A DNA stretch of 63,996 nt, counting the filler, from Stramenopiles sp. TOSAG23-6 (taxonomy: Eukaryota): assembly GCA_900128565.1 (NCBI GenBank). It is 3 parts of 3 records of this genome, joined end to end, with 100 filler letters (N's around TTAATTAATTAA, not from the genome) between each part and the next. Parts side by side here need not be neighbours in the genome. Positions count along the whole stretch, not along the records: positions 25,131 to 50,045 come from LT635999.1; positions 50,146 to 63,996 come from LT636157.1; 1 more part is not named here. One strand, 5' to 3'. The first letter of the stretch is position 1. Each line of letters starts with the position of its first letter. A model generated the notes under the pieces. That model had not been told where the DNA came from and made no database searches. It was given only the letters and a program-made list of their open reading frames with translations. Both the position numbers and the translations under genes were made by a program. Below are positions 31,142-63,996 of this stretch, piece by piece.

Positions 31142-33648
31142 TTACATATTTTTACATTTAAAATTTTTCCATTCTTTTAAAGTTGTCCGAGCAATAGGAG
31201 ATACATTTAAAGTTCGAGCATTTGCATCATCAACTCGTACAACTACGTAATCTCCACGTTTTAAAAACACATTACTACTACTTTTAATAATCTTAGTATT
31301 ATTATTATTATTATTATTTGTAGTATTATTCAAAAACACACTATTATTATCATTTGTAGTATTATTCAAAAATACACTACTACTACTACTACTACTACTA
31401 CTATTAATAATCTTAGAATCATTATTATTATTATTGTTTGTAGTATTATTCAAAAATACACTATTATCATAATTAATAATCTTCTCATCAATATTATTAT
31501 TATTACTATTATTACACTTTTTTGTATATCCATTGAAAAGACTTAACAACAAAGAAGATTCAACAGGAATATTTTCAAATACACAGCGTTTGTTGGTGTC
31601 AGTACGCCCAGTTAATTGCTCGAGCCCAGAAGCACTCACCGCTCTTCTACTATTTCCTTCAACAAGAACTAAATGAAATTGCCCAATTTCAGATAAAGCT
31701 CGTTTAGTAGCTTGTCTGGTAAACACTTCAATAATTTCACGAAGTCGCCTTTGTTTGGTCTCTTCAGGAATATTATCCTTCATTTTATGATAAGCATGCG
31801 TCCGTTCACGTTCGCTATAAGCAAACATGTATTGTTCAAAAATATTTCAAAAACATTGAAATTCATTAAGTACATAATCTCGAAATATCGGGCGTTTCTT
31901 ATAATAAAAAATCTAGTATGAAAAGAAATTATGTAAAAAATTCATGATGAAAACGTATCGAATAAAAATATTTCAAAAAAAAAAAAACATGATGTAAAAA
32001 ATTCATAATGAAAACGTACATATATGCTTGTTCAAAGCCTACAATTTCCATGAGGCTCAATGTGTCAGCATGTTCATCTTCAGTCTCATCACAAAAACCA
32101 GTGATAAAATCAGAACTGAATGCAACACTTTCCTTACCAAATTTTGTACTTGAGGAATTTTCACCAGAGATTATATTTCGTGCATTATCAATCAGAGTAA
32201 GGTACGCCTCACGAGAATACCCGCGTCGCATTCGTCGTAACACAGATGAACTCCCAGATTGAGCAGGCATGTGTAATTGATTACACAAATTATCTCTTTC
32301 TGCATGAAGCTGTAGCAAGGGCTTTGGAAAATCTTTTGGATGAGGAGAAGTATATCGAACTCTCATTTCAGGATCAATTAGAGTAATTGCATCCAGCAAA
32401 TCAGTAAATCGATGGCCATCACCCTGTCTAAGTTTGTATAAATTAGAAAAACCTTCAGCAATCATATACCCTCCCTCAGCTGCCTCAGTCTCAGCATCAC
32501 CTATAGCACGCGCAGCGGCACCACGTTCCGTTTCTTTTGATCGAGTTATACTTTTATGGTTAGGGTTTTTGTATTGCATTGAACTTTTACCAAGTTGATG
32601 CCAATAACTATTTACATTTTGACCAAGTAACGTTACTTCTTTACACCCATTATCCGACAAAGCACGCACTTCATCCAAAATACTCTCAAAAGGACGACTT
32701 CTCTCACGACCACGGGTGAAGGGTACGATGCAATAACTACATGTATTGTGAAAAAGTATATCAACTTCGAAATTAGGGTCATGGTTAGGACAAAACCTTT
32801 GTAGTAGTAGGTACGAAAAAAATTAAAAAGAATGATGAAAACGTACACATGTTATTACAACCTCTCATGATACTACACCATGCAGAGACATTACTCTTTG
32901 AAGTTCGAACTGGTTTGACGTCTGCATATGTTTCATCAAGACTTAGTTGGACGTTCATTGCCCGCTCACCTCCCTGGACAAGCTTGATTAAGTGTGGCAA
33001 GTCTCTGTAAGCATCAGGTCCAGCGATAAGATCAACAATTTTTTCTTCTTCCAATAACTTTGATTTCAAACGTTCAGCCATACACCCAAGAACACCCACT
33101 ACTTGATTTGGTTTCCGACGTGGAGTGCCATGCTGAGCAACTCTCTGTTTTCTCGTCGAGACAGTTTTGTTCTTCAACTCACGAGCAGCGGCCTTGCGCT
33201 CTCCTGTCATATTCCGAAGTCTATTTCTTATTGTATTTTCGGCTCCATCTCGTATAGCACATGTATTTATTAGGACGATATCTGCTGAATTTTCATCAGT
33301 TGTTTTCTTGAAACCTGCATCATCGAGTAAACTGCACACAATTTCAGTGTCAGAAACATTCATTTGACAACCATACGTCTGAATATAATATGTACTACCC
33401 GGTACTTCCAAAAGAACTTGATCAAGAGCATCGGTATTATGATGACCAAATACATGCGCTTTCTGAAGATCTAAGGAAGAAACGGCTTCATTTGAATTTG
33501 CCATAAAGTGCTTGAGAGATAAAACGTCCTCGTCCTTCAACGTTCGCTTTCCTTTCCTAGCCATTTCTGAACCTTTTGATACCACAACTTGTCGTGCTTT
33601 AGAAGAAAATACACGAGATACAAGGTTACATGGATACAACAATCTCAT
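31142..33648 (-). CDS. CDK5RAP1: Mitochondrial tRNA methylthiotransferase (MiaB family), 3 exons
   Basis: [24 protein letters not shown], spliced [38 protein letters not shown] domain. Confidence 0.92.
31827..32019 (-). mobile_element. Diverged GT-AT intron
   Basis: tatat|GTACGT..ACAATACAT|gttt; restores QAY-M-FAYS. Confidence 0.8.
32741..32846 (-). mobile_element. GT-AT intron inside the radical-SAM motif
   Basis: atgt|GTACGT..CCTAAC..ACAATACAT|gtagt; restores CNNM-C-SYC. Confidence 0.88.
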
Positions 33649-34037: not shown

Positions 34038-37000
34038 TTATATCTGCTGTTGTGAATTCGAGAGCATTTGCATCATTAACTGTCGCTGTTGCATTAATCT
34101 CAACTGCAGTTGCTGTTGTTGCTGCTGTTGTTGTTGTTGTTGTGGTTGCTGCTGTTGTTGTTGCTGTTTCTGTTGTAGTTGTTGTTGCTGCTGTGTTTGT
34201 TGTTGTTGTTGTTTTTGTTGCTGCTGTTGCTGTTGTTGCTGTTTTTGTTGCTGTTGTTGTTGTTGTTGCTGCCGTTGTTGCTGTATGTAATGCATCTGCT
34301 GCATCCGTTGCTGAGCAAGTTGATACTGTAACAGTTGCTGCTGTCGTTGCATTAAATAATTATGTTGTTGTTGTTGATATTGTTGTTGCTGTTGTTGGTA
34401 TTGTTGTTGCTGTTTTTGTTGTTGTTGTTGTTGTAGCTGTTTTTGTTGTTGTTGTTGTTGTTGCTGTTGTTGATACTGTTGTCGCTGTTGTTGTTTTTGT
34501 TGTTGTAGTTGTTGTTGTGCGTATTGGTATTGTTGTTGTAGTTGTTGTTGTAGCCGTAATTGATGCTGATATTGTTGTTGTATTTCGTTATTTCCTACTT
34601 GTTTGTTAATATTTCGACTATTTCCTACATGATCGTGAATATTCCGACTATTTCCTTGTGATATCAATGAGTTTCTATCAGTTTGTTGTTGTGATACATT
34701 TTTTTTCTTCCCATTCGATTTTGATGATTTGGACGAAATTCGAGCTTTTTTATAATTCTTTTTCAATTCCTCTTCATTTTTTCTTTTTTTAGTTTTCTTC
34801 ATCCCAGAAAAATCAGTAAACCAAGTTAAACTATTCAAAGTTTCATTGAGCATTTTTGAAGATTTTGTTATCTTTTTAACTTTATTTTTTAAATTATTTG
34901 CTTCGAGAGTTAATGCTTTTGCAGTAAAAGGTTTGACGACCCAATCATGTATTNTGAAAAAAAAANTCGTATAAANTNCGTTAGGTACAAAATTTTCTAT
35001 GAAAAAAATAAATAAATTTGAAATTGATAAAACGTACATGATGTCGTTTCTTGAAAAGATTACCCAAGCGATGAGCATACTTAAAATAAATCGAGTCTCC
35101 TGGATTGTACAATTTAGCATTACGAAAAATCAATTCCATGTCAAGCTTAAATTGTGTATATAATTTTAGGAAAATATTTCAAAACTTTCAACTCAATTAG
35201 GTATAGTACAAAAAAAAATCATTACAGATTGATCAAAAAAAAAAAAGAAAAAAAAATGTTAGGTACAAAATTGTGTACGAAAAAAAAACAAAAAGATAAC
35301 ATACATGACTTCGATATTTTCCATCCATTAGTTTTCGTTGTACTTCAATCAGAGACATAGGTTGTTCAATTATTGTATAATACTGAGGAGCGACTTCTTC
35401 AGTAACTGGGTGTAAAAAAGGCTCTGATATATCAAGTTCATTGATACTTGCCCAAACTGCTGCACAATTTCTTAATTTTTTTTCAGGATTTGTTAAATTT
35501 TTTCGTTTCGGTTTTGTTTTTTTAACGATTTTTTTTTTAGTGATTTTACTTGAATTTTCTTTTACGTATACTTTTTTACTATCATTATCATTCGTTCTCG
35601 GAGTATTGTCATCAAAACATTCTTTTGCTAATTGATCCAATTCAAAATCAAGATTAATGCGAGGTTTTGTATTTTTTCGAAGTTTTGGTTGAAGATGATC
35701 AGGGATCAGAGAATCATCACATTCAAGCCCCTGGCGTTTTTGATTAAATCGCCATTGTCGCAATGCACTTCGTCGTTCTCTTTCTTCCCTTGCTTCTTTT
35801 TCTTCTTCTGTTTTTTGTTCAGCAAAAGCAATCATTAACAACTGCTTCCTTTTACTATACTGGGCCTTACTATTTTCGCGACGTTCCAGGCGAAGCCGAC
35901 GAGATTCTTGTTCTCTGAACTCTTTTTCAGCTTTATCTGCTTTTTCTCGTTCAATTCTCTCCTTTTCCCTCTTTGCCTGTTCTAATTCAGCTTCTCTTTT
36001 TCGACGCTCACGTAACTCTTTTGCCTTCTCCTTATTTAACAACAACTGTGCTTCTCTTCTAAAACGCTCTTCTCGTTCTTTTTTTTCTATTTCTTCTCGC
36101 TGGGCAGTATTTTGTGCAACACGAGATGACCGTTTACGTGGCATTAAACTGATGAGCCGTTGTTTCTCTTCTTTCGCTTTTTGCTTTTCTAAAACTTCCT
36201 TTTGTTCATCCCAATCAGAGATGTATTCTAGGAAAATATTTCGAAAATGTGAAATTCGTCAGGTACAAAGTTTAAAAAAAAATGTTTTTTTTTGTTACGT
36301 ATGAAATTTCGTATGAAAAAAAAGTAAAGAAAATGTAGGCAAAACATTCTAGGTAATATTTCAAAATTTTTTTTGAAAAATTGTTAGGTACAAAATTTCG
36401 TACGAAAAAAAAAATAGAACGCACATCATCGTTTCAAGGTGATCTCGAATCGGTTGCTCCAAGTCCCAAAATTCTTTATTTTTTTTTCTTGATTCGCGTT
36501 CTTCTTTTGCTTTCTTCAATTCCGCTTTTGCTTTCTTCAATTCCGCTTTACTTGCTTTTTTATTTTTTTTATTTTTTTGAGTTTTCTTGTTTTTTTTTGT
36601 TTTTCTCAAAGGTTTTACAGCCTTCTTTGTAAATTGACTTAACAATTCACGAATATTAGCAATACCCGAAGCAACTAATGTCCATTTTGGCTCCGCGAAA
36701 TTTTTCCAGGAAGAGATTCGTTTTGAAGTCTCCTCTATAAAATTACGATGCTCACAAAGTTCACCATCAGAATCAACATCTTCACTTGCAACAAAATTAC
36801 ATTGTTTTTCGTGTTGGTTCACTTCATCTAAAGTTCCTTCAAAAGGACAACCATTTGTCTCGCATTCATATTCAGCCTCTGTTTTGTCTTCACATTTTCG
36901 TTGTACGGTTTGTCTGTAGACACGAAATTCTTTCCAGAAGGATTCAAACCAAAAATATCTAAATCCATTACGATCTACCGCAAATGGTTCGACTCGAAGA

Positions 37001-43343: not shown

Positions 43344-46033
43344 TTAACTTCTTTCACACGTACTAACTCTTTTATTACCCTGGATTGGATTTTGACTATC
43401 CACTACATCATGAGGATCAGGATCTCCTTGAGGGAAACCTAACAACCATGTATTTTGGGAAAATATTTCAAAAAAAAAAACTAAAATTTGTTAGGTACAA
43501 AATGTCGTACGAAAAAAAAACTCGAATTTGAAAAAAAATAAAACATACATAGACAAGCTGATGATTTTCTTTCTGAAACTAAATTATTTAACATGTCACA
43601 CAAAATGTCACTACTCGATTCAAGTAATACTAAAGTTACCAAACGCTCATAACACGTGAAACTTTCATATTCTCCAGTATTTCCTTTGTTTTTACGCATA
43701 TTTGCTAGATATTTATCAAGATGTTTTTTTGCGGTCCTTGCGTCATTGACATTTAGAAGATTCTTAATTTCACATAAGGAATATAAAGTGACATCCGATT
43801 CACTACAGAATTGTCGCAGAGTTGCTGCAGTTGTTTTATGAGTAAATGTAATATTTTCAGGAATTGTTGAAATATCACAATTCCCATTGTTTTCTTTGAT
43901 TAATCCATATCTTCCTAAAAATTTATCATTTCTTGAAGACTTTTTGAAGAATTTGATAGTTTTACAAATTAATGATTCAGTTACGTTTAGGTTTGGTTCA
44001 TTAGATTCACTCGGAGTATTAAATTCTATAGTATCATGTATTGAATCGCCTATTGTAGAAATTGTAGAAATTGTAGAACTAGGGTTAGGGTTAGTAGAAG
44101 GGACAGTCACTTCTGGACTAATTACTGTAGATAAATTAGTTGTTGAAGTTTTGCCTTCACCAACAGACAAATTAGTTGTTGAAGTTTTGCCTTCACCAAC
44201 AGACAAAATAATATCTCCATTCGTATTATTGGTTGCTGCCGCTGTCTTTATTTCTATAGAATTTGTAGATGTAGGAACATCATTCATTTTACAATCTATT
44301 TCATGAAATGCTCTTTTCCGAGCCACGCGTTTTATTATTGGAGAATCTGTATCACATTTCGTCTCTAACGAATTTTGAATTTGTGTCTTCTCAGCATCAT
44401 CCTCTCTAGCATCAACAATATCAGTCTCATCTAAAATGTCCATATTTGTCAAATTAAGTAATCTATCATTTAACTCAGCATCTTTAGAAAGACCTTTCTT
44501 ACATGAAGAAATTAGTTTATCCACAAAAAGTTGAACTTCTTCATATATTCGATGATTACTATTATGGATTGTTAGAGTAATTGAATTATCCTTTGTGCGT
44601 TGGGATGAAATTTGAGTATTTGTAGCTTTGGAAGCATTATCATCATTCACAAGCTTTCGAAGAAGCAATTCCAGAACATTTTGACTAAACAAATGTGCAA
44701 ATGCTTTATCAATGACGACAGTATAAGGAATTTGAATATTTGCAGTTTCTTTTAATAACATTTCTTCTTCATTCACTGTAAAATCTTCTGCTCCTTTTAG
44801 TTTCATTTCTTCTTCATCCACTGTAAAATCTTCTGCTCCTTTTAGTTTCATTTCTTCTCTATACGCCTCAAGATCTTCTGCAACATTTGATTCCATTCGA
44901 TATGCTTCAAGATCTCCTTCAAGATCACCAGAGTCAGAGTCACATTCGTCGTTTTTCATTTTAGAGGTTTTAGATTTTTTTGACTTTTGTCTCTTCGATT
45001 GTGAATGTTTTGGAGAGTTAGAATTAGGAATCTTCCTTTTTTTTGATTCCTCTTTTTTTTTAGTGAATGAAGGTGATTTATCGCCGTCCATTCCAACAAA
45101 ATTAAATTTAACTTTGTCTCTACCTCGGGGTCTATGTATTTTGGAAAAATATTTCAAAAACAATTGTTAGGTACAAAATTTCGTACGAAAAAAAAATTCG
45201 AATTTGAAAAAAATAAAACATACAAATTCCTGATGTCGGATTTCTGCGACTGGCCATTGATTTTCGGATACAACAGTATGACTGTAACATTTTTCAGGAA
45301 TTAAATTTACATCAATGTCTAACACTCTCTGTAACTCTACTGAAGAGCGACAGGTTTTTGAAAGACTGGCATTATGATAGTAGACATCAGCTCTTCTAGA
45401 CCCATTTTTTTGAGGTTTTTTACGCCAATTTAGTTTAATAACCCAACCAGGGGGAGGCCATGATAATGATTTCTTTCCTCTTCTAGCACCTTTTGGACTC
45501 TTCTTTTTTATTACTTTTTTTACTACTTTTTTTACTACTTTTTTTACTTTTTTACTTTTTTTGGTAATTTCATTATGAAACATACTATCCGATATACTAT
45601 CCAAGGGATCTAACACTTTCACTCTTCGCAAACCACTCTGTGGTACTTTTGAAACCACAGATGTTTTCAAAGCCGAATATCTCCTTTTATTTTCTTTTTT
45701 TCTTTGTTCGCTGGCTAAGTCTCCTATAGACGGAAAAGTAGCTTTCGGAGTTTTGGACTTAGATTTTGATATACTTGGATGCTTTTTTTTATTACTAATT
45801 GACTTCCTCAACACTGATTTATTACTGATGCTAACTTTTCCAGAGAATTTAGATGAAGGCTTGTGCGAAGTTATTGTTGACTTAAACTTTTTAGGTCGCG
45901 TAGTAGTTGTGGTTACTTTTACTTGCTTTGGTTCACTTTGAATTTCCTCCACATCATTGAATATATCCATAATATCATCAGACAAATCCATATTGCAACT
46001 CTCTGAAAAATCGACCTCTGTCATTGTGATCAA
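43344..46033 (-). CDS. MBD (methyl-CpG-binding-like) domain protein, 3 exons
   Basis: PPPGW....RK......RADVYY......CRSSVEL motif; ORFs joined by the introns at 45134-45223 and 43448-43548. Confidence 0.6.
43448..43548 (-). mobile_element. Introner-like GT-AT intron
   Basis: ctat|GTATGT..TACCTAAC..CCCAAAATACAT|gg; an in-frame AG 9 nt downstream also exists. Confidence 0.7.
45134..45223 (-). mobile_element. Introner-like GT-AT intron
   Basis: gaattt|GTATGT..TACCTAAC..AAAATACAT|agaccc; in frame only with the AT acceptor. Confidence 0.82.
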
Positions 46034-46376
46034 TCAAAAGTAACTACAATATAACAATTGGAGCTGACCCGAATGAGCTCGAATACAATTTATGTATAAT
46101 TTACTTTAATAGAAGATGCCGAGATACCTATTATTGTAATACAAGTCTTTCGCGCGTGCCTGTCAAGGTTGATTTTTAGTTGATTTAGATTGTGTTTTTT
46201 TTTGGGAGTGTTTTCGCGCGTGCCAAAGTCGAAAAACAAAAGAAACATGCTGGTACCGGGTATCTATATCGCTGTCATAAAAAATTGCTGGTATAATTTT
46301 GATATATGATATCAATTCAATCCAACAAGTTGTTGCAGTTTGCACTTATTTACTGTTTTTTTATTTCTACAATACA

Positions 46377-46985
46377 ATGCGTCTCTTTTTAGTTGCTTGT
46401 GCGATCGTCTTTACCAGTATATATGGTGAAGATATGCGAATTCTTGTTGGAGAGGTGAAGGGGGATTTTGAATTACTCGGTTCCCTATGCTTTGAACAAA
46501 CGATGGACGAACAAGACAAAGTAACTACGTTGAATATTACACTAAATGCTAAAACGGGAGGTACCCTTATGTTCTTCGATGACCAAGCTAGTTCATTTAT
46601 AGCTGTGGATTCGGCACCTGAAGTCAATAGTAAAATGCTAACTTGTGAAGATAAAGTAAACCTTGCCAAAACGGGACGAATTAGCTACGGTCCCGGAGAA
46701 ACGACGACAACATATACTATCACAGAGCATTACAAACGGCAGTGGTATGCTGTCGCCGCAAATTGTGGCGGAAAGGTGGAATTGAATTCTTACGAAATTA
46801 CCTCCTCCGGAGCAATTGACTGTTCTGATGTCCATGATGAAAGATCGCTCGCGCCTTACACAGTATCAATTGTTTTCCTCAGTGTTATTGCCGTTGTTCT
46901 TGTTGGTGTTTCGGCAATGCTCTTTCAACATGGCAAACGATCTCCTGTTGTGGAAGACTCTTCCCTCACATACAATGAGTTATAA
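46377..46985 (+). CDS. Single-pass membrane protein, GPR180/TMEM145 ectodomain-like
   Basis: Signal peptide, LGSLCF, RQWYAVAANCG, one C-terminal TM. Confidence 0.55.
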   Translation: MRLFLVACAIVFTSIYGEDMRILVGEVKGDFELLGSLCFEQTMDEQDKVTTLNITLNAKTGGTLMFFDDQASSFIAVDSAPEVNSKMLTCEDKVNLAKTGRISYGPGETTTTYTITEHYKRQWYAVAANCGGKVELNSYEITSSGAIDCSDVHDERSLAPYTVSIVFLSVIAVVLVGVSAMLFQHGKRSPVVEDSSLTYNEL

Positions 46986-47348
46986 TCTTTTGAATATTTA
47001 TGAGCAGCTGTCTTTGTTATCTATCTTGAATTTAAGCTATTAATTTAAGCTATTATTGAATTTTGTTAGACGTATCGTATAGTTGATTAGTCAGAACCAA
47101 TCTTTTTTATTTTCATAGGATTTTCATAGGAATTCCGCAAACAAGCTTACGAAAACGCAACAGGACAAAATGGTCAATCTATTCTATTTTATTTTTTATA
47201 TTCTATCTTTTTATTTCTAATAAAAAATATACAGAATGTTTTAAAATTGTACTTGGTATTTTTCTGTTTACCATGAAAAATTAATATATTATATTAGAAA
47301 AAAACCCGTCAAGGTTTAGTTAATGGTTTCCTATTAGAAAAAACCCCG

Positions 47349-48752
47349 TCAAGGTTTAGTTAATGGTTTCCTAGCGGTAAAAAATGCAGTGTTATAAACA
47401 GTTCCCATCATAGATAATCCATCGGAAGCATATGTCGAATGTCGTTTTTCTTCTCTTCTTATTATAAAACCGAAAGACTTAACTACATATTTTGTAAAAA
47501 AATATGTCAAGTTTGCATTTTGTTAGATCTAAAAAAATATAGGATTTGAAATTGAATAGGTACAAAGAAAAACATAGAAACTAAAAGTAACGAAGAAAAC
47601 TTACATGAATGAGTTCATCATAGCTCAGCTCTATTGACTGCTCATATCGACAATCATTTTCACCCACTGAAGCATTAGCCCAATGATACAAAAGAGGTCC
47701 CATATTTATCCACACACCTCCGGGTTTTAATAATTTCCATATTAATTTGATATATCGTGAAAACATATATTACATTTGAAATTTGTTAGGTATGGAATTC
47801 TCATTGATTATTTTTTTTAAATATTGATGAAAACATACATATAATCAAATATATTCGGTGCTGTATCTATAAAAAAACATGTCAAAATAGCATCCCAGTT
47901 ACTAGATTGCTTACTATACACTTCCAAAAACTCACCAGCACACATCGAAACATTCAGGCCAGGATTTTTATGCATTACGTCCATTGGAGATAGGTCTGGA
48001 ATATATATAGGTCGCGCCATGTTGGCATTTGACCAATTATTGCATCTCTTATCTATCCAAGGATGAATACAAATTTCGTCGACATGAGAAGTTTTATTGA
48101 GCATATAGGTACTGGCTAATAACATAACATATGAAAATTCATTGCCCTGAACTTCATATCCTCGACTGGCCAACTCAAGTACGAGCCTACCCGCGCCACA
48201 ACCTGGGGCAAGAACTCGCTGTACGTTTTTATTGGCGTCAGTTACCGGAAGACAATTTTCCAACTCTTCTAACATTGGAATCATACACTGTGATCGCTCT
48301 TCAGAACCTTCAGACGACCACTCTCTAGAAAGTTGATGGAGAGTACTAACTACTTTTGACATACTATGTCCACTACTTTCGATAACAATATCGTCTCTCT
48401 CAGGAATATGACTTTCATTAGCAATATTTGGTAACGACTGTCGCCCATCAAGTCGCTCTTCCTCTGTAGTTGATTGTTCATGTTGAAAACTATTATAACT
48501 GCTCGCGATTTTCCAACATAAAGAGTTATTCGTATGCACTGCATTCACCAACATATCAATATTGCAACATACACCTTTTTTGCCTCCAGGAAGACGCGAT
48601 AACTGGTCAGGTGAAAGTGATAACATATTGTTTCTTTTTCTGATCACGTCCTTCATAGCATACGCACCATACTCGTTGTAAGATTTAACAACATCAAGAA
48701 AATGTCTACGTTCTTCCTCACTACCCACTTCGGGTAACTTTCCAGATGACAT
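47349..48752 (-). CDS. CARNMT1: Carnosine N-methyltransferase (N2227 family), 3 exons
   Basis: [58 protein letters not shown]. Confidence 0.9.
47487..47604 (-). mobile_element. Diverged GT-AT intron
   Basis: attcat|GTAAGT..TCTAAC..CAAAATAT|gtagtt; gives ELIH-VVKSFGF. Confidence 0.78.
47750..47838 (-). mobile_element. GT-AT intron
   Basis: tatat|GTATGT..TACCTAAC..GATATAT|caaa; gives [16 protein letters not shown]. Confidence 0.82.
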
Positions 48753-49176
48753 TGGATTGAATAAAAATAATTTCGACAAGCTTTAGCTTCAGATAAGTCT
48801 ACAACGGGTAGTGCCACTTAGCCCTGGGGTAGCTAGCTACGAAGTAATACAAGTAGGAGTTTACTACTAGATTCGCTAAGTACTCTATATGTAGTACCTG
48901 TGTAGGTACTTAATGTAATAGTAGTAGTAGTAGTGATGACATTGTGTCTTTGAAAGAGAGTCAGCGCGACGTCGACGTCACGAATTTTGATTTTTTGGCA
49001 TATCGGGATTTTTCGTGTACTACGCTATAACCCCAACCCTAGGTTAGCCAACGGTATTTTGCGCAGTTACAACTTACAAGTATCATCTTTTCTTGTAGTC
49101 TCTGTCAAGTTGATCTGCTCGTTCTTTTAGACGCAATAAACTGACTATCTCAAAACAGTAATAAAACAAAGGTAGC

Positions 49177-49479
49177 ATGGCTGATTATGAAGGATATTCA
49201 AGTCGAGAGGAAGAGGTTGCCGCAATGTTTGCCGCTTGCGACACTGACGGAGATGGTTACGTTGACAACGAAGAACTAGCCAATTTGTTTGTCCAGCTAG
49301 GTTTTGAAGACACCGACAACGACAATTTTGTTAAATACATATCAGAAGTTGCACCTGCAGCATGGTTTGACGATGATCAAAATCAAAAATTAGATTACGA
49401 GGAGTTCGTTATGCTGTATAACTATCTTGTCGATGGTGGTGAGGCTGGAAATGAATATGAAGAAGAGGAAGATTACTAA
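49177..49479 (+). CDS. Small EF-hand calcium-binding protein
   Basis: DTDGDGYVDNEE and DDDQNQKLDYEE loops. Confidence 0.8.
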   Translation: MADYEGYSSREEEVAAMFAACDTDGDGYVDNEELANLFVQLGFEDTDNDNFVKYISEVAPAAWFDDDQNQKLDYEEFVMLYNYLVDGGEAGNEYEEEEDY

Positions 49480-49645
49480 CGAGAAGATACTGAACATTGG
49501 CTGTCTTTATTTTATAAAATAACAAAGAAATATAACTTCTTTGATATATATATCATGAAGTTTTGCTTTAAAAATAAAAAATATTCATATAGAAACTTTT
49601 TTTGAACGTCCATCGTAACACCTTTATTGATTTTCTTATATTATT

Positions 49646-49991
49646 TTATTGGTTTTCTTGTATTATTTTTGGATATATTATATCATAATGACCAGGTCTA
49701 AAAAGGAGCAAGACTAAAGGGTTTTCACTCTCAGGAAACGTGTGATGGTTTAACGTGCCACCAGTGCCATCCAAATAAGCTATACGACATGCTACATTTG
49801 GTAAAGCAGAACTTAAAGCAGTGATCTGAACTTGATCAACATCTTTTGCCATAGCTTCTACCTGAGAAGAACAAAATTTCTCAATGCCAAGGCCAGGGTG
49901 TAACGCATCTATAAATGGAACGAAGCTGTTTGGATTTTCCTTTATGTGAACCGCAGTGAGTACACGTAAGTAACAAACAATATAATCCGAA
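49646..49991 (-). CDS. OTUB1: Otubain deubiquitinase, last exon (5' part lost at contig end)
   Basis: SDYIVCYLRVLT..FVPFI..FC...VEAM..D.VQITAL..YLD..LLFRPGHYDIIY. Confidence 0.85.
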
Positions 49992-50045
49992 ATGTATTTT
50001 GGAAAAATATTTCAAAAAAAAATCGTTAGGTACAAAATTTCGTAC
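49992..50045 (-). mobile_element. 3' half of introner, truncated by contig end
   Basis: GTACGAAATTTTGTACCTAAC..CCAAAATACAT|. Confidence 0.8.
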
Positions 50046-50145
50046 NNNNNNNNNNNNNNNNNNNNNNNNNNNNNNNNNNNNNNNNNNNNTTAATTAATTA
50101 ANNNNNNNNNNNNNNNNNNNNNNNNNNNNNNNNNNNNNNNNNNNN
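50046..50145. other. Artificial contig linker (N-TTAATTAATTAA-N)
   Basis: Six-frame stop linker inside an N run. Confidence 0.95.
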
Positions 50146-50228
50146 GNAAAAATNTTTNAAAAAAAAAAACGTTAGGTACAACATTTCGTACGAAAAAAAA
50201 ATCGAAATTGAAAAAAAATAAAAAATAT
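50146..50228 (-). mobile_element. Introner copy at contig edge, donor reads ATATTT
   Basis: Internal TTTCGTACGAAATGTTGTACCTAAC matches the family; low-quality edge. Confidence 0.65.
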
Positions 50229-51224
50229 ATATTTCCATGCATTGCGCCAAACTATACTAGTTAATGCAAAAATAGCAGCATCTTTAGGAAGTTGTTTAAT
50301 AATTTTGTCCCAATTTACTTTTGGTAATTTTGCAATGCGTTCAAGACTGTGCCAATATGGATTATAATGCCAATGCGCTGGTTCTGTTTTACTATTATCA
50401 ATATCTTTACTATGAATAGTATTATTATTATGATTATCTTTACTATGATTATTATTACTATTACGAATATCTGTACCAACAACAGAACCAAAATAATAAA
50501 TTTCCAAAGGTTGTAGAGCTCCAGAGGAAGGATTGGCTCGGAGAGAATATTTAACACCTCTTCCTTGACTTTTCCAAGCTGTTAGACCTGCCGCGTCATG
50601 AAGAAGTACACCGAGAGATTCTATGGACCATATCTTGGTTTTAAAAGGTAGTTTTGTAGATATACTCGATTGAGGAAGATCTATACTCATAGAGCCAAGA
50701 ATACGCCTAAATTTGTCAGGTTGATTTTCCCAGTCCATTTGACCGCCAGAAGCATATAAACCAGGTCTCACATGGCACGATTTAGCGTGATAGCGAATCA
50801 CAGTCGCAACAGTAGGTGAAATATCCATTTCTTCTGCAGCTATTAATTGCTCAGATTTCAAGCGTTCTGCATCACGAGACAAAGCCTGAGTCAAACGTGC
50901 CCTTTTCTGCATCTTTACAATATCTTTTTCTTTCGCTTCCCGTACATATCCTGAATCATCAATGGGTACATATGCCATACCTCCTTGGTCAAGTTCAACC
51001 AAATATGGAGCAACTTGATCAGATGACCAGTGAGATTCTCTGTGATGTAAACTTATAATACGAGCAACTTTCCATCCACTACGACCCATATTGACAAGTA
51101 CAGTATCGTCGACATTAAAACGTAAATCTGTACAAGTTCCTTCGCCAACACAAGTTTCGTCTTCCATCTTTGCAGAAATTATTCCAAAAAAACAACAAAT
51201 GAATAAAAATGATATTCTTGGCAT
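50229..51224 (-). CDS. SagB/ThcOx-type nitroreductase-family protein with signal peptide (3' truncated)
   Basis: MDWENQPDKFR, YSLRANPSSGALQPLEIY, YNPYWHSLE, SIVWRNAWKY. Confidence 0.75.
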
Positions 51225-51642
51225 ATTACGAATGTATCGTGATTAGCGTATACTAGAAACAGACAACAACTTGATTTAGCTAATGATGAATAGTACTCAA
51301 ATTCGTGGTAGCTTTTTTTTGTTATTCAATCTGAAATCAATCTGATTTTAAAAATGCAATCTGAAATCTGAAAATGTAATCTGAAATCAATTCAATCATA
51401 ATGTTTTGTGTGCGTTTTGTGTGAGTTTGTGTTCGTGTTTGTCATCTGATGTCAAAACACGACCGTTTTTTTCAGTTAAAATTTCCAAATCTATCACTAC
51501 TATCTACAGTATAATAATAATAATCATCACATAAAATATACACAAAAATTTCTCTAGTTCCTAGGCTATAGCTACCATACTACAAAAGTAAATTTTCAAC
51601 AAAAACATATTTTTCAAACTTTTAATTTATTTTCATCAAAAG

Positions 51643-53687
51643 TTATGGAAGTTGAGAATTACACGGCCATTGAGGACTATTAAGAGGATCAAATGTCTCT
51701 TTGATTGTCCTTGCAGAAGTCCATTTTAAGTTATTCAATATGGTACCTGTCTTATCATTCGTACCTGATTTACGAGAGCCACCAAAGGGTTGTTCCCCAA
51801 CAGCAGCACCTGTACATTTATCATTTACATAAAAGTTACCAGCTGCATTTTGTAGTATGTTTTTTGGAAAAATATTTGAAAAAAAAAAACTTAAATTTGT
51901 TAGGTACAACATTTCGTACGAAAACCAAAAAAAAAAATCGAATTTAAAAAAAAATAAAACATACATAGAGTCTGCAACACGAACTGCTCGTCTGCATTCA
52001 GAAAATATTGAGCCAGTCAGAGCATATTCAGATGTTTCATTACATATCTCAAGTGTTGCTTCATAATCTGCTGCATCATACGTATGTATTTTGGAAAAAT
52101 ATTTAAAAAACAAAATCTAAAAAAAATTGTTAGGTACAAAATTTCGTACGAAACCAAAAAAAAACAAAAAAAAAAACAATTCAAATTTTCAAAAAAATAA
52201 AACATACATATACTGTTAGTACAGGTCCAAATAATTCATCACACATTGTCGAATATTTTGGATTCTTGGTAACAATAATTGTAGGTTCAATGAAAAATCC
52301 CTTTGAATCATCATATTTTCCTCCTACAAGAACTTCACAATCAGATGATGCATTTGCTTCATCAAGATACTTTGCAATATTATCAAACGAGCTACGATCA
52401 ATTACAGCCGTCATGAAACTGCCAAAATCAGTTGAACAACCTACTTTTAGTGTATTTGTAGCTGCAATGAGTTTATCCTTTACCTCATTCTCCCAGGAAT
52501 GTTCTGGAATATATGTATTATGAAGAAATATTTTACATTCAAAAGTAAAAAAAAATGTTAGGTACAAAATTGTCTATGAAAAAAAAAAAAAAATTCGAAA
52601 TTGAAAAAAAATAAAACATACATAATCGACTTGTGGCTGAACATTTTTGGCCTTGATAATCAAATGCTCCACGTGCAGTATGATTCACTACAGAATCCAT
52701 GTCTGCACTCTCATGTACGAAATGAAAGTTTTTACCTCCCGTTTCTCCAACGACACGCGGATATGATTTGTAACTTGCAATATTTTCAGCAACACACTGC
52801 CAAATTGTATGAAACGTACCAGTACTACCCGTGAAATTTACTCCACCAAGATCTTTGTGTGGAATCGCAACATTGCCTACTGTTGATCCACTACAAGGGA
52901 TGAAATTAATTACACCATCAGGAAGTCCAGCTTCCTTGAAAATTTTCATGACAAGCCAACTTTCGTGTACAGCAGTAGATGAAGGTTTAAAAAGGACAGT
53001 ATTTCCCATTAACGCTGGAATTCCAGATAAATTTGCACCAAGAGCACAAAAATTAAATGGAGCAACCGCCAAGACAAAACCTTCTAATGCACGATGTTCA
53101 ATACGATTCCAGTAGTTTTGAGCGCGGTACAAGGAAGGTGGTTGAATACTGTAAATCTCGGATGCATTCTTTACACCAAAGCGGANAAAATCTGAAATCT
53201 CTGAATTATCAATATCAGCTTCACGAGGAGTTTTTCCTGTACCCAACATTATAGAGGCATTTAGTTCTTCACGGTATTTTCCAGCACATAAGTCTGCAAC
53301 TTTAAGAAATACAGCAGCTCGGTCTTCAAACGGCCAATTAGCCCATTCACGTGCCTCTGTGCTCATGGCCGCATCTATTGCTGACTGAATTGTAGCTTCA
53401 TCTGCCAGATGGAATTTACAAATCTCGTGACCATGCTCCGTTGGCATAACCTGACTTACCGTGTTTCCAGTAAAGACATCTTTACCATTGATAATGCATG
53501 GAATTTCCACATGGCTTGCATACAACTTGTCTACTTCTTCTCGAAGCTTGGCACGATCCGAAGAACCAGGAGCGTACGTCTTTGGAATCTCATTTCGAAT
53601 CCAACTGAAATCCCAATTAGCAAAACCTGATACAGCTCGCGTTGGTAGCCTAGCTAAAGTCATCCTACGTACACTAGAGGAAAGCAT
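51643..53687 (-). CDS. ALDH4A1: Delta-1-pyrroline-5-carboxylate dehydrogenase, 4 exons
   Basis: APFNF, FTGSTGTF, GETGGKNFH, GQKCSA, ELFGPVL, AAGNFYVNDKCTGA, QPFGGSRKSGTNDK. Confidence 0.93.
51857..51964 (-). mobile_element. Introner-like GT-AT intron
   Basis: tctat|GTATGT..TACCTAAC..CCAAAAAACAT|acta; gives ADS-I-LQNAAGNFY. Confidence 0.85.
52084..52207 (-). mobile_element. Introner-like GT-AT intron
   Basis: gtatat|GTATGT..AAAATACAT|acgtat; gives GPVLTVY-TYD. Confidence 0.83.
52513..52621 (-). mobile_element. Introner-like GT-AT intron
   Basis: ttat|GTATGT..TACCTAAC..TAATACAT|atatt; gives KCSATSRL-Y-IP. Confidence 0.87.
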
Positions 53688-54004
53688 CTTCTTGTTTTTT
53701 TGAGCCAATCTATTTTTTAACTGTGTTTCTTCTAAAGTTTGTGTGTTTGTTTCTAACTTTTTCGCAAATCAAAATAAAATCAATCGAAATGGACGGTCAA
53801 AATTTGATCATTAATAAATTTGTTATTTAGGGTTAGGGTTCAGGTTCAGATTGAACTTTGTGTTCAAATCAAAATCAAATATAACCATTAATAATAATAT
53901 ATAGTAGTAGATCCTAATGACTAATCATATATACAAAAAACACAAAAAACAATTATTTTTTTAAAAAACTTGTATTCATTTATCTTTCAATTTCTCAAGT
54001 TATC

Positions 54005-54853
54005 TCAATTTAGCTTGAGAAAAAAATGTTTGATTTGTTCATAAGAACAAAAAAATGCAATAGTCCATGGAACATTTCTTGCACAATAAGGAATAAAACC
54101 TTTATAAAATGATCTTGGTCCTTCATGTTTTAATACTTGTTGAATGCAATGTATTGTTCCACGATACATTTTTGGATCTTCGGCAGTCATGCGTCTAGTT
54201 TTAATAAAATCTAATGGAGTTGTTAAAGAAGCCCCGACAAGACCAGAACATATTCCAGAGAAAATATGCAAATCCATTCGATCCGCATATCCTCTTTCAA
54301 TACATGCTGTTTTAACAGCATCATATGTCACCAGTTCAGACGCGTTTGCAACCGCAGCTCTTTGAACAGTTTGACCAACACCTAGGTATAAACCTCTAAA
54401 TCCAGTTTCCTTTATAATAGTTCTAAAAGTATGATATACTCCACGATATTTGTTCATTCCGTGAGACTGATTCTGTAATAATAAACGTACTCGGTCAGTT
54501 GGTGAAGCAATTGCAGATGCTACTGAACCTGAGAACAATCCTGCGGTAACTTTCTGATAGAAAGAGACAACACCATCCTGAGATTTTGAGAGGCTATTCT
54601 TCACAGAGTCATACATACCAACACGCAAAGTTCCATAAATTGCCTGACGCATTAAACTTGGTACTATACCTTTCCAAAATGCAAATGGTCCCTCTTTATT
54701 CAGTATATTCATAATGAGTGAACTAGAAGGAATAGCTCTTCCTATTGTGTTTTGTCTCCTTACTTTAATAACGTCAAATGGGGATGAAACTACGTCGCCT
54801 ACCATGCAAGCCACTCCTCCTGATATAAATTTTAAAGGAATAGATTCTGTCAT
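54005..54853 (-). CDS. Mitochondrial carrier (SLC25, UCP-like)
   Basis: Three Px[D/E]xx[K/R] motifs (PFDVIK, PTDRVR, PLDFIK). Confidence 0.9.
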   Translation of the reverse strand: MTESIPLKFISGGVACMVGDVVSSPFDVIKVRRQNTIGRAIPSSSLIMNILNKEGPFAFWKGIVPSLMRQAIYGTLRVGMYDSVKNSLSKSQDGVVSFYQKVTAGLFSGSVASAIASPTDRVRLLLQNQSHGMNKYRGVYHTFRTIIKETGFRGLYLGVGQTVQRAAVANASELVTYDAVKTACIERGYADRMDLHIFSGICSGLVGASLTTPLDFIKTRRMTAEDPKMYRGTIHCIQQVLKHEGPRSFYKGFIPYCARNVPWTIAFFCSYEQIKHFFLKLN

Positions 54854-55132
54854 TCTTCTCTACAGTCGTTGTAAAGATAAAAAATATAAAATGGTGAAAA
54901 TCGAAGGATGTGCGTTGGAATAAATATTTCTTCGCACCACGATGTACTAGCTAGGATCTTTTTATAGTTTGTAGTACTTGTATATATATAGTAGTATATA
55001 GTACACAAGAAGCTAGTCACGTGACTATGATTTGAAATTTCCAAGGAACTTTCGGTTTCAAATTCAAAATCAACCGTTATTAAAAAAATATATTGGAACA
55101 AACATGTTTTTCTAATTATTTATATTCAATTT

Positions 55133-55703
55133 TCATATATTATGCTGATTACAAGCGTTCACCGGTTCGTATTCAATCAGCGATACATTATTATCAGACG
55201 CAATACTCTTAGGAGCAGCTGGTGTTGATTGGACGTCATCTGGGAATGGTGAAACTTTCCCCCACTTATCTACAGAAAGACGCATAAAATTTCCTACCAT
55301 GTATTTTGGAAAAATATTTAAAAAAAAAATCGTTAAGTACAAAATTTCGTACGAAAAAAAATAAATTCGAAATTAAAAAAAATAAAACGTACATTATCAC
55401 TTTACTATTGCGTAAAACTACAACATTATTTTCTTGGAGAATTTTTATCTGCTTATCCTGTGCTGAAAACAATACACAACCAGACTCATCCCCAATGAGT
55501 ACATCGGCTTCAAGTAAAACCCTTCCATTAGGGAAATTTGTTTCAAAGATTGTTTTGATTTCTATTACTTTTACAACTAGATTTGCACCACACTCATTTG
55601 GATCTAACTGAGATATAGTAAGATATGATGCTCGAGCAAGATTTGCTCTTTCTGGTGAATTTTCAATAGTATTGGCTGTTGCGTCCAAGGTTGAGTGTTG
55701 CAT
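55133..55703 (-). CDS. Small OB-fold nucleic-acid-binding protein, 2 exons
   Basis: NLVVKV..LIGDESGCVLFSA..LRNSKVIM...MRLSVDKWGKV..NNVSLIEYE. Confidence 0.8.
55299..55392 (-). mobile_element. Introner-like GT-AT intron
   Basis: ataat|GTACGT..TACTTAAC..AAAATACAT|ggta; gives SKVI-M-VGNFMRL. Confidence 0.85.
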
Positions 55704-56242: not shown

Positions 56243-59152
56243 ATGAGTAGTGAGAGTCACAAAAAAGATTTGAATAAAAAACAGTCGTCGTTGAGGCTTG
56301 AGGCAATTGGTTTCGGTGCCTCAACTAAAAAAATCATCGGTGCCTCGACTACAACTGCACAATCAACACCAGAGTTGTTGAAATATTCAAGTACAAATAC
56401 TTATAATGAAATTCCTATTTCTTCATATGATATTAAAACTTCTCAAAAAAGTGTAGCACCTCTAGCTTCAATTCAACCAGCTTCATCTACTGTAGAAGTG
56501 TTTGCCAAAAATGGAGGTAAATCAGAGGTAGATTCTAAAGGAAAATATGAATATAGAAGAGTTATAAACAGTACTTTTAAAAAGCAAATTCAAGATGAGG
56601 ATAAAAAAGCTTTTCCGCCATCAAGTGTAGTAGATAAAGAGAAAAAAAATAGATCAAAAACGAGTTTTCTAACAAAACAAACTACACAGAATTCAAAAAC
56701 CACTATTGATAGTACACAAAGAGTAAGTAATAAACAAAAAANAAAACAAAATAATAGTACAATAAAGAATGTAGGTGCTTCTTTTACCCGATCTACAAAA
56801 TCTACAAAATCTAAAAAAATAAATACATTACACCCAAACAATAAAAATCAGAAAAAAATGACTATAAAGTCAAGAAGAAAAACTCTCCGTTTTAACACAA
56901 TGTCGCCAACACCAAGTTTGCAAACAAAAAAGGAAAGAGCTCTTCGGTATGCTAATGCAGCGCAGCAGAGGAAACAAATGCGTTCATTCAAACCATTACA
57001 AAATAAAGATCTTGTTGAAAAAACGGCTCCTCTCCTAAAATCGATTTTAGAACCGAAAATTAAAATATCAATTTTAGAACCGAAAACTAAAACTGTAAAA
57101 AAATCTGATGATATTATCAATTTGAAGGCTGTACATCCAGTGAAAAGTAATTATGTCAATGATTCTATCTCACCGATATATAAAAATATAAAACCAAGTA
57201 TGAGAGGCAGGCAAATTTCATTAGTAGAATCGGGGGATATGTATGTTTTATTTTTTTTTTTTTTTTCGGTAAAAAAAAATCGAATTTATTTTTCGTACGA
57301 AATTTTGTACCTAACATTTTTTTTTTGAAATATTTTCCTACAATAAATACGAAAACAAAATAATTTGTTCTTAGATTTAGATATACTGCGTATTCAGCAG
57401 GAGTATGAAGACAAATTAGAATTAGAAGAGTGTCAACTTTCACCTGGTGGTACGTATAAAGCTGGCCCTGATTGGCGCATTAAACAAGAAGGAATTACAA
57501 ATCCGCCGTCTGGAACCTCAAAGGCTGTACGTCTGAGATATCGTACTGTTTCCGCACGAGCTCGAAGTAGACGAGGCAGTTTAAAGGATGAATTTCTGAC
57601 ATTAACAAATCTTGGTCGGGGTGGTTCTAGTGTTGTATTTAAAGTGATACATGTTCCATCTTTACAAGTTGCTGCAATTAAAAGAATTCGAGTTGGTAGC
57701 AAACAAAAATGTGAAGTTGTTCGACATGAACTTCAGGCACTACATGCTAATATTGTCCCATTGGGAACTGTAGTGACACAGTCACCGTGTCCTAATATAG
57801 TAACATTTCATGATGCTTACACAGATATCCAAGAAATGAGTGTCGGTCTTGTGCTACAATATATGGATGCAGGTTCTCTTCAGGATTGTGTAAATGATTT
57901 TCCCACGACCCGAACTTTAAATGGAAAAATAATTCCAAAACGTCCAGAAGATTGGACCGAAAAATCAATTTCTATAGTTTTATATGGTATTTTGAAAGGT
58001 ATTGAATATTTGCATTCACAACAAAAACTTCATCGAGACATCAAACCTTCAAATGTATTGCTATCATCAGCTGGTGAAGTTAAAGTATCTGATTTTGGTA
58101 TTGCGCGTACTATATCTGAAATATCAAGCGGGGTAAATGACTCTATTTATAATCATAATACTAATAATAGTATCGATACCAAAGAAAGCACAAATAGCGA
58201 TACACTTTCGACTACAAAACTAAATCGACCAAAACAATCTATCTTATCTCTTGAATCAAATAGTTTAGATAGTGTCAATTTTCATGGCCAAAAAACATTC
58301 ACTGGGACAATGCTCTATATGTCGCCTGAACGTCTTGAAGGATTGCATTATTCCTACGCATCCGATATTTGGTCAGTAGGACTAATCATTATGGTCATGG
58401 CATTGGGTCAATTACCTTTTCAGGGAGTCGATGGTTTTTGGGGAATGAAAGAAGCTTTGAAGACATCAAATGGCATTCGGAAGATTGCTGATAAAATGAT
58501 GCAAGGAAAACATTCATTATCATCTGATTTATGTGATTTTTGTAAACAATGTTTGCAAATGGATCCAAATAAACGACCATCAGCAAAGCAACTTTTACAA
58601 CATAAGTTCCTATCATCGGCAGCAAAAGCTACTATAGGGCAGCGTAGGAGAACTGTAAAAAAAATGATAGGTAGTAGGATTCCATCCTATGAATACCGTG
58701 TGAGAGAACTTGAACATATAGCGGATGTAATTGCTCAAGAGTATAATGCACGTCTTCTCCGAAGCCGACCATCATCTGCACCAATACTACCAACTGATGA
58801 TAGGAAAAGTAATCGAATCGCTACATTGAAATCATTACGACATATTCCTAAAAAATTTCCAATTATCAAAACTTCAATAAATAACAACAATACAGATCGA
58901 ACGCCTTCGCCGCCTTCTAGACAAAAATACACACAAAAAAATGAGTATAATAGTTATGATGCCGGTGTTGGGGAATCTGGATTACAACGTCCAGCTGCTG
59001 ATGCAATTGCTCGCCTTGCAGTGCAACTTGGTCTTCCGGTTGAAACAGCACAATTAGTATTTATAGATGCTTTTTCAAAAAATATGAAAGATTCGCGTAA
59101 AACTAAATCTTATTCAACAACTATACGCGCAAAAAAGCAAAGTATTCAATAG
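56243..59152 (+). CDS. MAP kinase kinase (STE7-like) with long basic N-terminus, 2 exons
   Basis: LGRGGSSVV, AIKRI, YMDAGSL, HRDIKPSN, SDFG, TFTGTMLYMSPERL, SDIWSVG. Confidence 0.85.
57241..57348 (+). mobile_element. Introner-like GT-AT intron (AAT end)
   Basis: gatat|GTATGT..TACCTAAC..CAATAAAT|acga; joins the two ORFs in frame; downstream AGs are out of frame. Confidence 0.72.
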
Positions 59153-63941: not shown

Positions 63942-63996
63942 ATGTATTTTGGAAAAATATTTCAAAAAAAAATTCGTTAGGTACAAAATTTCGTAC
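63942..63996 (-). mobile_element. 3' half of introner, truncated at window/contig end
   Basis: GTACGAAATTTTGTACCTAAC..CCAAAATACAT|. Confidence 0.8.

Follow-up and report, generated by a model that had tools for sequence, protein, structure and literature searches.

GT-AT introns of a probable introner family and a U1 snRNA that matches their donor in a likely stramenopile genome

Introduction

Few signals in eukaryotes are as strongly conserved as the AG dinucleotide at the 3' end of introns. In the stretch of DNA considered here (below, the window; 63,996 nucleotides (nt), filler included), which joins three contigs of the draft genome GCA_900128565.1, introns that start with GT end mainly in AT. 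These introns are members of one repeat family, their last two bases mostly copy the exon bases found immediately before the donor, and the 5' end of the only U1 small nuclear RNA (snRNA) found in the genome is complementary to the family's donor, including the AT at the exon end. We consider it probable that these are U2-type introns of a single introner family, which inserts with a 2-bp duplication and is served by a retuned U1, and that the acceptor is set by a terminal motif of the element such that neighboring AGs are ignored.

The draft genome (21.1 Mb in 6,236 contigs) is AT-rich and derives from a marine eukaryote, likely an uncultured stramenopile. In a PRP8 tree the host is grouped with oomycetes and Aureococcus, among environmental sequences (99% support in an SH-like approximate likelihood ratio test (SH-aLRT), quick method, 34 rows), and the nearest named matches of its U2AF65-like protein are from brown algae and their relatives. 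A preliminary description of the window had pointed to altered 3' site selection at five AT acceptors; it was right in this respect, but missed the repeat origin of the introns and the matching change in U1.

The intron family and its ends

The family introns are about 80−180 nt long (typically ~100 nt) and share a common layout, i.e., a donor GTAYGTTT, a branch motif GTACCTAAC, U tracts and a terminal TTTTYCMMAATAY plus two bases. The 13-nt branch motif is found in 7,547 exact copies genome-wide, a number inflated by duplicated contigs, as compared with a single copy of a reversed control. The YAG acceptor expected of U2-type introns is not characteristic of the family: when ends were anchored to the branch motif throughout the genome, 3,313 read AT and 158 read AG (about 4.6% of the comparison), where a few of the AG matches sit beyond a true AT end. 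Whether this genome contains GT-AG introns at all, which the preliminary description had left as a question, is hence answered by the AG-ended family members. Among 96 anchored ends in 628 kb sampled, the dinucleotide is AT in 75, GT in 7, TT in 6, AG in 5, AC in 2 and AA in 1.

The origin of these bases is reflected in 58 frame-checked introns with a GT donor. The exon end before the donor is AT in 42 of these, and in 39 AT is found both at the exon end and at the intron end. The same non-AT dinucleotide is found at the two positions in nine introns (TT in four, GT in three, CT in one and AG in one); shuffling gave a mean of 0.99 such pairs, and nine pairs were reached in 0 of 10,000 shuffles. 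The last two intron bases thus mostly copy the upstream exon end and, as judged from the sequence, the matching dinucleotides are a 2-bp target-site duplication; GT, TT and AG ends would occur because the duplication copies whatever dinucleotide is found at the upstream exon end. An intact AT only at the acceptor was seen in six introns and only in the exon in three. A larger asymmetry of this kind (16 vs 3) shrank to these numbers with GT donors only, and a TT-end count of 23 among 145 was set aside because false anchors had raised it. By eye, AG stood upstream of each of five AG-ended copies, an impression that did not hold in a larger set (4 of 24).

Three traits known from introners are found in this family, i.e., many similar sense-strand copies in unrelated genes, a locus-specific target duplication and, as described below, positions that are empty in related loci. 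The ends of the element form short imperfect inverted repeats (7 nt with one bulge; GTAT..ATAC). About 80% of the donors are GT, with a minority of AT, GC, GA and GG, some of which are mis-anchored; relaxed donors with these four starts are seen before an intact AYGTTT, and include AT..AT introns. In viral contigs, 29 matches to the branch-plus-end pattern were found, with a donor in 0 of the 29.

Several individual copies may be mentioned. One gene (locus L075, contig G000:C27), which we take to be GAA1-like, harbors at least six family introns, three of which read AG/GT..AG with diverged donors (here and below, a slash marks a splice site). A family intron of the PRPF4 gene (L207, about 1990−2110) apparently ends in CTG, as judged by eye. 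Copies of the branch motif without one or both element ends, found in L198 (about 2490−2570) and L049 (+), may be intergenic remnants.

Splicing at AT in the P5C dehydrogenase gene

A gene for an ALDH4-type pyrroline-5-carboxylate (P5C) dehydrogenase (51643..53687, minus strand), identified by homolog alignment and Pfam, is composed of four exons that encode 567 amino acids (aa). It is interrupted by three GT..AT introns on the same strand: intron 1 (52513..52621; 109 nt, branch A at 52558), intron 2 (52084..52207; 124 nt) and intron 3 (51857..51964; 108 nt). When every acceptor within 30 nt was scored against nine homologs, the AT end ranked first at all three introns, and the alignment with 12 homologs is gap-free at all three AT junctions. 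Each AG within 30 nt of the three acceptors truncates the protein. The three positions are empty in six of six related loci (70−76% identity; L122 partial), three of which are contigs under 2 kb that may be transcripts. By eye, the introns present in two related loci (70−74% identity) look like GT-AG introns.

RNA data were obtained from Logan contigs of four of nine metatranscriptome runs, compared with positions 50200−63996 of the window, with joints at repeats excluded. One junction is seen directly, in two runs, and three further introns indirectly. Contigs of runs X2 and X5, which are from two studies, skip exactly 52513−52621, i.e., intron 1 (joint 52512−52622; shorter side 255 and 80 letters). 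The preliminary description would be refuted, by its own account, if AG junctions dominated in RNA; the contigs agree with AT: they splice at the AT of 52513, and no joint to an AG is present among the 15 of 30 joints listed.

The indirect cases involve introns 3 and 2 of the same gene and an intron at the end of the window. A contig of run X3 (record 17) stops at 51858 and has 185 further letters, which is consistent with removal of intron 3, and an X3 piece of equal depth ends at 52083, next to intron 2. The latter end excludes as acceptor an in-frame TAG located 33 nt upstream (−33). A contig of run X5 (record 30) covers 63771−63943 followed by 31 further letters; here, the 3' part of a family intron is cut by the window end (63942..63996, minus strand), and an in-frame AAG at +3 stays exonic. 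These two unused in-frame AGs matter because nonsense-mediated mRNA decay (NMD) could not remove products made with them; the skipping is seen in one contig each, in a table read by eye. As far as AGs are skipped, including these two, the altered 3' site selection put forward previously is upheld.

Within positions 51857−63996, runs X1 and X3 also contain hundreds of intron-repeat contigs, which are either unspliced RNA, excised introns or DNA. Their high summed depth was not used as evidence, and neither were gaps in RNA coverage along the stretch.

AG dinucleotides next to AT acceptors

The five AT acceptors singled out by the preliminary description, at 45134, 47487, 52513, 55299 and 36221, were each said to have a nearby YAG, use of which would give an early stop. 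All five are found at these positions on the minus strand, and the stops follow after 3, 6, 0, 9 and 4 codons, respectively. At 45134, a 90-nt family intron GT..AT (45134..45223; exon end TT, branch A at 45167) has the acceptor CAT/AG, i.e., the TAG is at +2, in a gene without a Pfam match. The 118-nt intron 47487..47604 (GTAAGT..TAT) is a degenerate family member with a CTAAC branch A at about 47523, a TAG at +4 and an in-frame AG at +9; use of the AT junction yields the last 45 aa of a carnosine N-methyltransferase (positions 226−267 of 268 in Pfam CARME). In P5C dehydrogenase intron 1, a CAG at +9 is unused, which would place a stop codon at the junction itself. The 94-nt intron 55299..55392 (GTACGT..CAT), with an unused TAG at +5, interrupts a gene for an Ssb-like OB fold, which is completed by the AT junction (profile positions 1−81, then 83−96). 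A partly duplicated family intron of 204 nt (36221..36424; GTGCGT..CAT) has an unused TAG at −7, 3' of the branch site.

Use of the AT end gives an open frame for all 300 translated codons at 45134 and 36221, and 45, 55 and 110 aa that are open to the gene end or the next intron at the other three sites. Direct RNA support is available at one of the five (52513). The junction at 55299 is found within the RNA-examined stretch, and a joint across it is absent among those listed; 45134, 47487 and 36221 are located outside this stretch and are supported by frame or Pfam continuity.

The presence of a YAG near an AT acceptor is not by itself unusual. A YAG is found at +2 to +9 in 9 of 61 AT-ended introns and in 88 of 549 exonic 10-nt control windows (16%), i.e., the enrichment considered initially is at the level of chance. 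The flagged AGs matter because they go unused, not because they are present.

Register and U1 snRNA

Most junctions read AT/GT...AC AT/ and are compatible with either a GT-AT intron or an AT-AC intron placed two nucleotides upstream. Among discordant open-frame junctions, the AT-AC register creates a stop at 3 of 30 and the GT register at 0 of 30; 38 further rows, closed in all registers, were left out of this comparison. Of the minor snRNAs, U12 and U6atac were looked for in the draft genome and were not found. Introns of the U12 type are recognized by an RTATCCTT donor and a branch site close to the 3' end; the donor here is GTAYGTTT and the branch site is found 22−55 nt from the end. The GT-AT register is favored by the stops in the shifted register, the failure to find U12 and U6atac, and the fit to U1.

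The only U1 locus found is present in two identical contigs, within a U5-U2-U1-U4 cluster. Its 5' end, AAACGUACAUG, differs from the Rfam consensus, AUACUUACCUG, by three changes; the new bases recognize a U at +7, either C or U at +4, and the exonic U at −1. These are the consensus bases of the family (+7 T 95%; +4 T 67%, C 30%; −1 T 80%), and U1 is complementary to CAT/GTAYGTTT. In the GT register, it forms 9.2 Watson-Crick pairs over 58 donors, as against 2.5−3.7 upon shifts of 1−2 nt. The Rfam-consensus 5' end gives 7.0 pairs as compared with 9.2, and the duplex energies are −10.0 vs −2.3 kcal/mol. The candidate scores 54 bits, which is below the family cut-off of 69.5, and aligns with the full model (E 3e-12). 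The match between this U1 and the donor is shown at the level of sequence.

The U2 snRNA, the U5 loop and the ACAGAGA of U6 are conventional. While GTACCTAAC is the branch site in most copies, the U2 sequence (GUAGUA) is canonical, and pairing of the two would need one extra bulge or mismatch. In L051 (positions 9−645, contig G000:C1146), the U5, U2, U1 and U4 genes are arranged head to tail within 640 nt, 2−23 nt apart. Deviations from the Rfam consensus are also present in the U1 loops that serve U1-70K and U1A. A sequence look-up with this snRNA locus gave no match.

Acceptor choice and spliceosomal proteins

The acceptor composition outside the anchor (n = 79) is Y in 100% at −3, A in 84% at −2 and, at −1, U in 94%, G in 4%, C in 3% and A in 0%, and YAY is typical of the 3' ends; only about 57% of the exons have Y at −3 before the donor. 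Scanning from the branch site for the first YAG does not describe the choice of these ends, as 7 of 61 introns have a YAG between branch and end; nor does use of the first YAT, as an earlier YAT is present in 58 of 61. The preliminary description had suggested that AT could be positioned by distance or by structure, neither of which finds support in that form. The distance from the branch A to the end is 22−55 nt, with peaks at 33−36 and 42−46 nt and no fixed spacing. The two ends of an intron pair only weakly with each other: the median probability is 0.01, and values above 0.3 are reached by 13 of 42 introns and 3 of 42 controls. The cut is constant relative to the terminal motif, i.e., it is found three bases after TTTTYCMMAATAY. 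The two distance peaks are about 10 nt apart, roughly one turn of a DNA helix.

Of the spliceosomal proteins, PRP8, a U2AF65-like protein, Slu7, PRPF4, FAM32A, a CWC24-like protein, Cwc15, Prp38, Isy1 and Prp31 were found in the draft genome. The stretch of PRP8 that we take to surround the 3'-site docking loop is conventional, without change; a short stretch at about residues 1439−1450 of the L095 PRP8 differs from human PRP8 in an otherwise near-identical region. A single U2AF65-like gene was found, which resembles those usual in stramenopiles, and its double RRM1-type layout, which is common to other stramenopiles, was rejected as an adaptation.

U2AF35 was not found in the draft genome: 0 of 17 CCCH matches qualified and there was no true motif match, in searches made without a U2AF35 protein query. 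A single motif match was out of frame in an unrelated open reading frame (ORF), and the U2AF35-type motif pattern had no match in prokaryotic or viral contigs either. Prp18, Cactin and SF1 were not found in searches of the draft genome, nor was U1C, for which the single zinc-finger match is a 509-aa protein. U2AF35, Cactin, SF1 and U1C are site-reading or fidelity factors. That the five unfound factors, Prp18 included, are all of this kind is no more than suggestive.

Introns without an intact family motif are of interest in this context. The FAA-hydrolase gene in L198 contains two decayed introns of this type that read GT..YAT, one of them with CAT/AG; alignments with PDB entries leave a 4-residue gap, and a putative micro-exon between the two introns would supply five residues there. 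When non-family introns were sought de novo with a codon model, the 60 of 908 candidates listed were mostly stretches between genes and decayed copies of the family.

Proposed mechanism and alternatives

In the reading that we consider probable, the element would bring the donor GTAYGTTT, the branch site GTACCTAAC, the U tracts and the terminal motif TTTTYCMMAATAY, and would insert, mostly at AT, with a 2-bp duplication. The final two bases of the intron would then be the downstream duplicate, such that splicing restores the gene exactly. The donor would be chosen by U1, whose three 5' changes allow pairing across CAT/GTAYGTTT. The acceptor would be chosen not by scanning for the first YAG, but by the U-rich terminal motif, which is suggested to place the base three positions on in the active site; neighboring AGs would be ignored because they are found outside this motif-defined slot. 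Y at −3 and A at −2 may dock normally and U at −1 may replace G at −1 against G at +1, as proposed for yeast that lacks Prp18. There, CAU and UAU are the best-used non-G ends and are promoted by U tracts, and U−1 is proposed to pair with G+1, while C or A at −1 would clash (PMC10711555). The acceptor make-up found here (U in 94% at −1) fits that model. G at −1 would still be functional, as in the AG-ended members, and C or A is seldom found at this position. AT ends may be permitted because the AG-checking factors U2AF35, Prp18 and Cactin have been lost or have diverged strongly, a step to which the searches lend weak support. AT would be the commonest end because of the target preference of the element together with the co-adaptation of U1.

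A number of observations weigh against this interpretation. Among AG-ended copies with a readable donor (24 of 29 rows), AT is found upstream in 15, AG in 4 and other dinucleotides in 5; AT upstream of these copies could reflect drift or selection back towards AG. About 20% of the ends are not AT, and the mechanism must therefore be permissive. An autonomous transposon was neither looked for nor found. The searches for absent proteins were made in a fragmented draft with duplicated contigs and no positive-control genome, where small domains can escape detection, and the choice of proteins for the two sets, found and missing, was made partly after results had been seen. The RNA evidence consists of contigs, which drop rare variants and give no isoform ratios; one junction is listed directly, its joint has a 2-nt ambiguity such that RNA alone does not fix the register, and no lariat or branch was seen in the RNA contigs.

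The preliminary description had also proposed that AT is preferred rather than merely tolerated. AT is indeed dominant, but the duplication at AT sites accounts for most of the excess without any preference, members ending in AG, GT or TT exist, and the case for selection on AT, for which the asymmetry is only 6 vs 3, is thin. We therefore consider it unlikely that the spliceosome has turned from YAG to YAU acceptors, be it by an altered second-step site or by a novel reader of the 3' end, such that AG-ended copies are now a weaker class. The U at −1, the two L198 introns (from one gene, with the micro-exon assumed), the apparent skipping of in-frame AGs and the reading of exonic AU by U1 would all fit such a switch, but the ends follow the upstream exon dinucleotide, most of those of the 158 AG-ended copies that have a readable donor carry AT upstream, and the docking region of PRP8 is unchanged. 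We assign a still smaller probability to mere tolerance, in which the nearby AG is often used by a spliceosome of the ordinary kind, the resulting products are degraded by NMD and the AT product survives. All five flagged AGs give early stops that NMD would hide, and contigs drop rare isoforms; yet the two in-frame, stop-free AGs (52084, −33; 63942, +3) appear unused on indirect evidence, such a route would presumably be very costly across thousands of introns, and U1 is co-adapted.

Introns in the AT-AC register, removed by a minor-type or a U2-type AT-AC route, would make the question of the AGs void. The two registers are indistinguishable at the 39 of 58 junctions with AT on both sides, and the RNA joint is ambiguous by the same 2 nt. 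This explanation is nevertheless improbable, because pairing with U1 is confined to the GT register, stops arise at three sites in the shifted one, U12 and U6atac were not found in the draft genome, the branch site is 22−55 nt from the end, and the would-be AC reads AT in 18%. Least probable of all is a structure-guided removal, perhaps without a spliceosome, where the inverted ends pair as in the nonconventional introns of euglenids. The imperfect inverted ends, the excess of introns over controls with pairing above 0.3 and the end-to-end fold of the 52513 intron are in line with such a process. Against it stand the low median pairing, the different folds of the 45134 and 55299 introns, the match of donor and branch site to U1, U6 and U2, and the flanks, which, when not AT, are direct rather than inverted copies.

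A more far-reaching version of the introner-based reading is possible, although we hold it only tentatively and think it less likely than its opposite: the lineage would have rebuilt its splice-site reading around AU after the invasion, with CAU/GU read by U1, a genuine loss of the factors that recognize AG and safeguard fidelity (U2AF35, Prp18, Cactin and possibly also SF1 and U1C), and YAU as the default acceptor even in old introns. If this were the case, the organism would have a natural major spliceosome that runs on G+1/U−1 docking.

Other features of the window

Further family introns are found on the two copy-rich contigs. The carnosine N-methyltransferase gene contains an upstream GT..AT intron (47750..47838, minus strand), identified from sequence and exon translation with the donor set by eye at 47838. 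Another minus-strand gene, presumably MiaB/CDK5RAP1-like, has two GT..AT introns: that at 32741..32846 has an AT junction that gives CxxxCxxC, with a TAG at +4 unused according to the translation, and a second, of 193 nt (31827..32019), is assigned by frame only. The latter also applies to the GT..AT introns 43448..43548 (minus strand; TAG at −33 and at +9), 34947..35037 (minus strand), 25356..25463 (plus strand) and 25757..25861 (plus strand; CAG at +6). In a bromodomain gene, the acceptor of a degenerate family intron that ends in TAT (35158..35304, minus strand) was set by eye from the reading frame; the alternative, 35160, is out of frame. Pfam and translation support a GT..AAT intron in a protein kinase gene (57241..57348, plus strand). 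A family copy with the donor ATATAT (50146−50230) is cut off by a contig end.

The first contig (1−25030, 25 kb) differs from the next two in that it has long unbroken ORFs and zero branch-motif matches, a contrast that may reflect either patchy insertion or mixed binning. Its overlapping ORFs 19155−19862 and 19853−21754 resemble a single frameshifted gene without an intron, where the frameshift at 19853−19862 is probably an assembly error. An exact 207-nt tandem duplication at 24616−25029, in an aspartic-protease-like ORF that adjoins the gap, is likely an assembly artefact.

Significance and comparison with known systems

Thousands of GT-starting introns that end in AT, together with a fitted U1, point to a spliceosome that co-evolves with a mobile intron. 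The genome makes it possible to ask, in a natural setting, how the last base of an intron docks in the second splicing step and, with the exon end and position 9 of U1 changed together, whether U1 pairing is what maintains the exonic AG before donors. It also provides candidate factors whose loss may relax acceptor choice. In practical terms, the flagged AGs are those that standard gene prediction will choose, and its gene models for this genome will be mis-spliced. In the literature covered, which leaves out most subscription papers and all supplements, no report was found of a GT-AT-dominated genome or of a U1 that matches exonic AU, and the phrase “GT-AT introns” gave 0 matches; the tables of the introner surveys could list this family.

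In the larvaceans Fritillaria borealis and F. pellucida, which are animals, AT is the commonest 3' end (34% and 44%), AG-AC and AG-AT are the principal intron classes, donors are diverse, the 5' end of U1 has not changed and U2AF has been duplicated (PMC13326754); a MITE-like (miniature inverted-repeat transposable element) origin is given for these non-canonical introns (review PMC11282704). The genome studied here shares with them a putative MITE-like origin of the introns, the frequent YAY before the donor and at the intron end, AT as the commonest 3' end, probably a U2 spliceosome and a GT-AG minority. It differs by a GT donor in about 80%, one dominant family, a changed U1, a U2AF35 that was not found and a likely stramenopile host; AG-starting donors, a duplicated U2AF and an unchanged U1 are not features of this genome.

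With the introners of Chrysochromulina (10.1101/2022.06.06.494994; PMC12130899), the family has in common high-copy, similar sense-strand introns, a locus-specific duplication and exact removal. In that type, the donor is carried by the element and the acceptor comes from a 4-bp target duplication, and AG and AC are the usual 3' ends in the 2025 introner survey (PMC12130899); in contrast, the duplication here is 2 bp and gives AT, GT, TT or AG. The introners of Amoebophrya (PMC7789003; review PMC11282704) are likewise repeat-derived and in the majority non-canonical; U1 was reported as apparently absent there, but is present and retuned here. In yeast with a prp18 deletion (PMC10711555), ends with U at −1 and U tracts are found as well, as a minor error class of the mutant, whereas here they are the normal route for thousands of introns. 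The U1 of Entamoeba has co-evolved with GTTTGT donors, and U1C is highly diverged (10.1101/2022.06.08.495308). As in Entamoeba, the U1 5' end described here is changed to pair fully with the donor of the genome, and position +7 is likewise read by an A. In the intron-poor genome of Entamoeba, the bases read by the changed positions are intronic, whereas in the present case, where U1C was not found, position 9 (C to A) reads the exonic U at −1 and U1 matches an invading repeat with AT ends.

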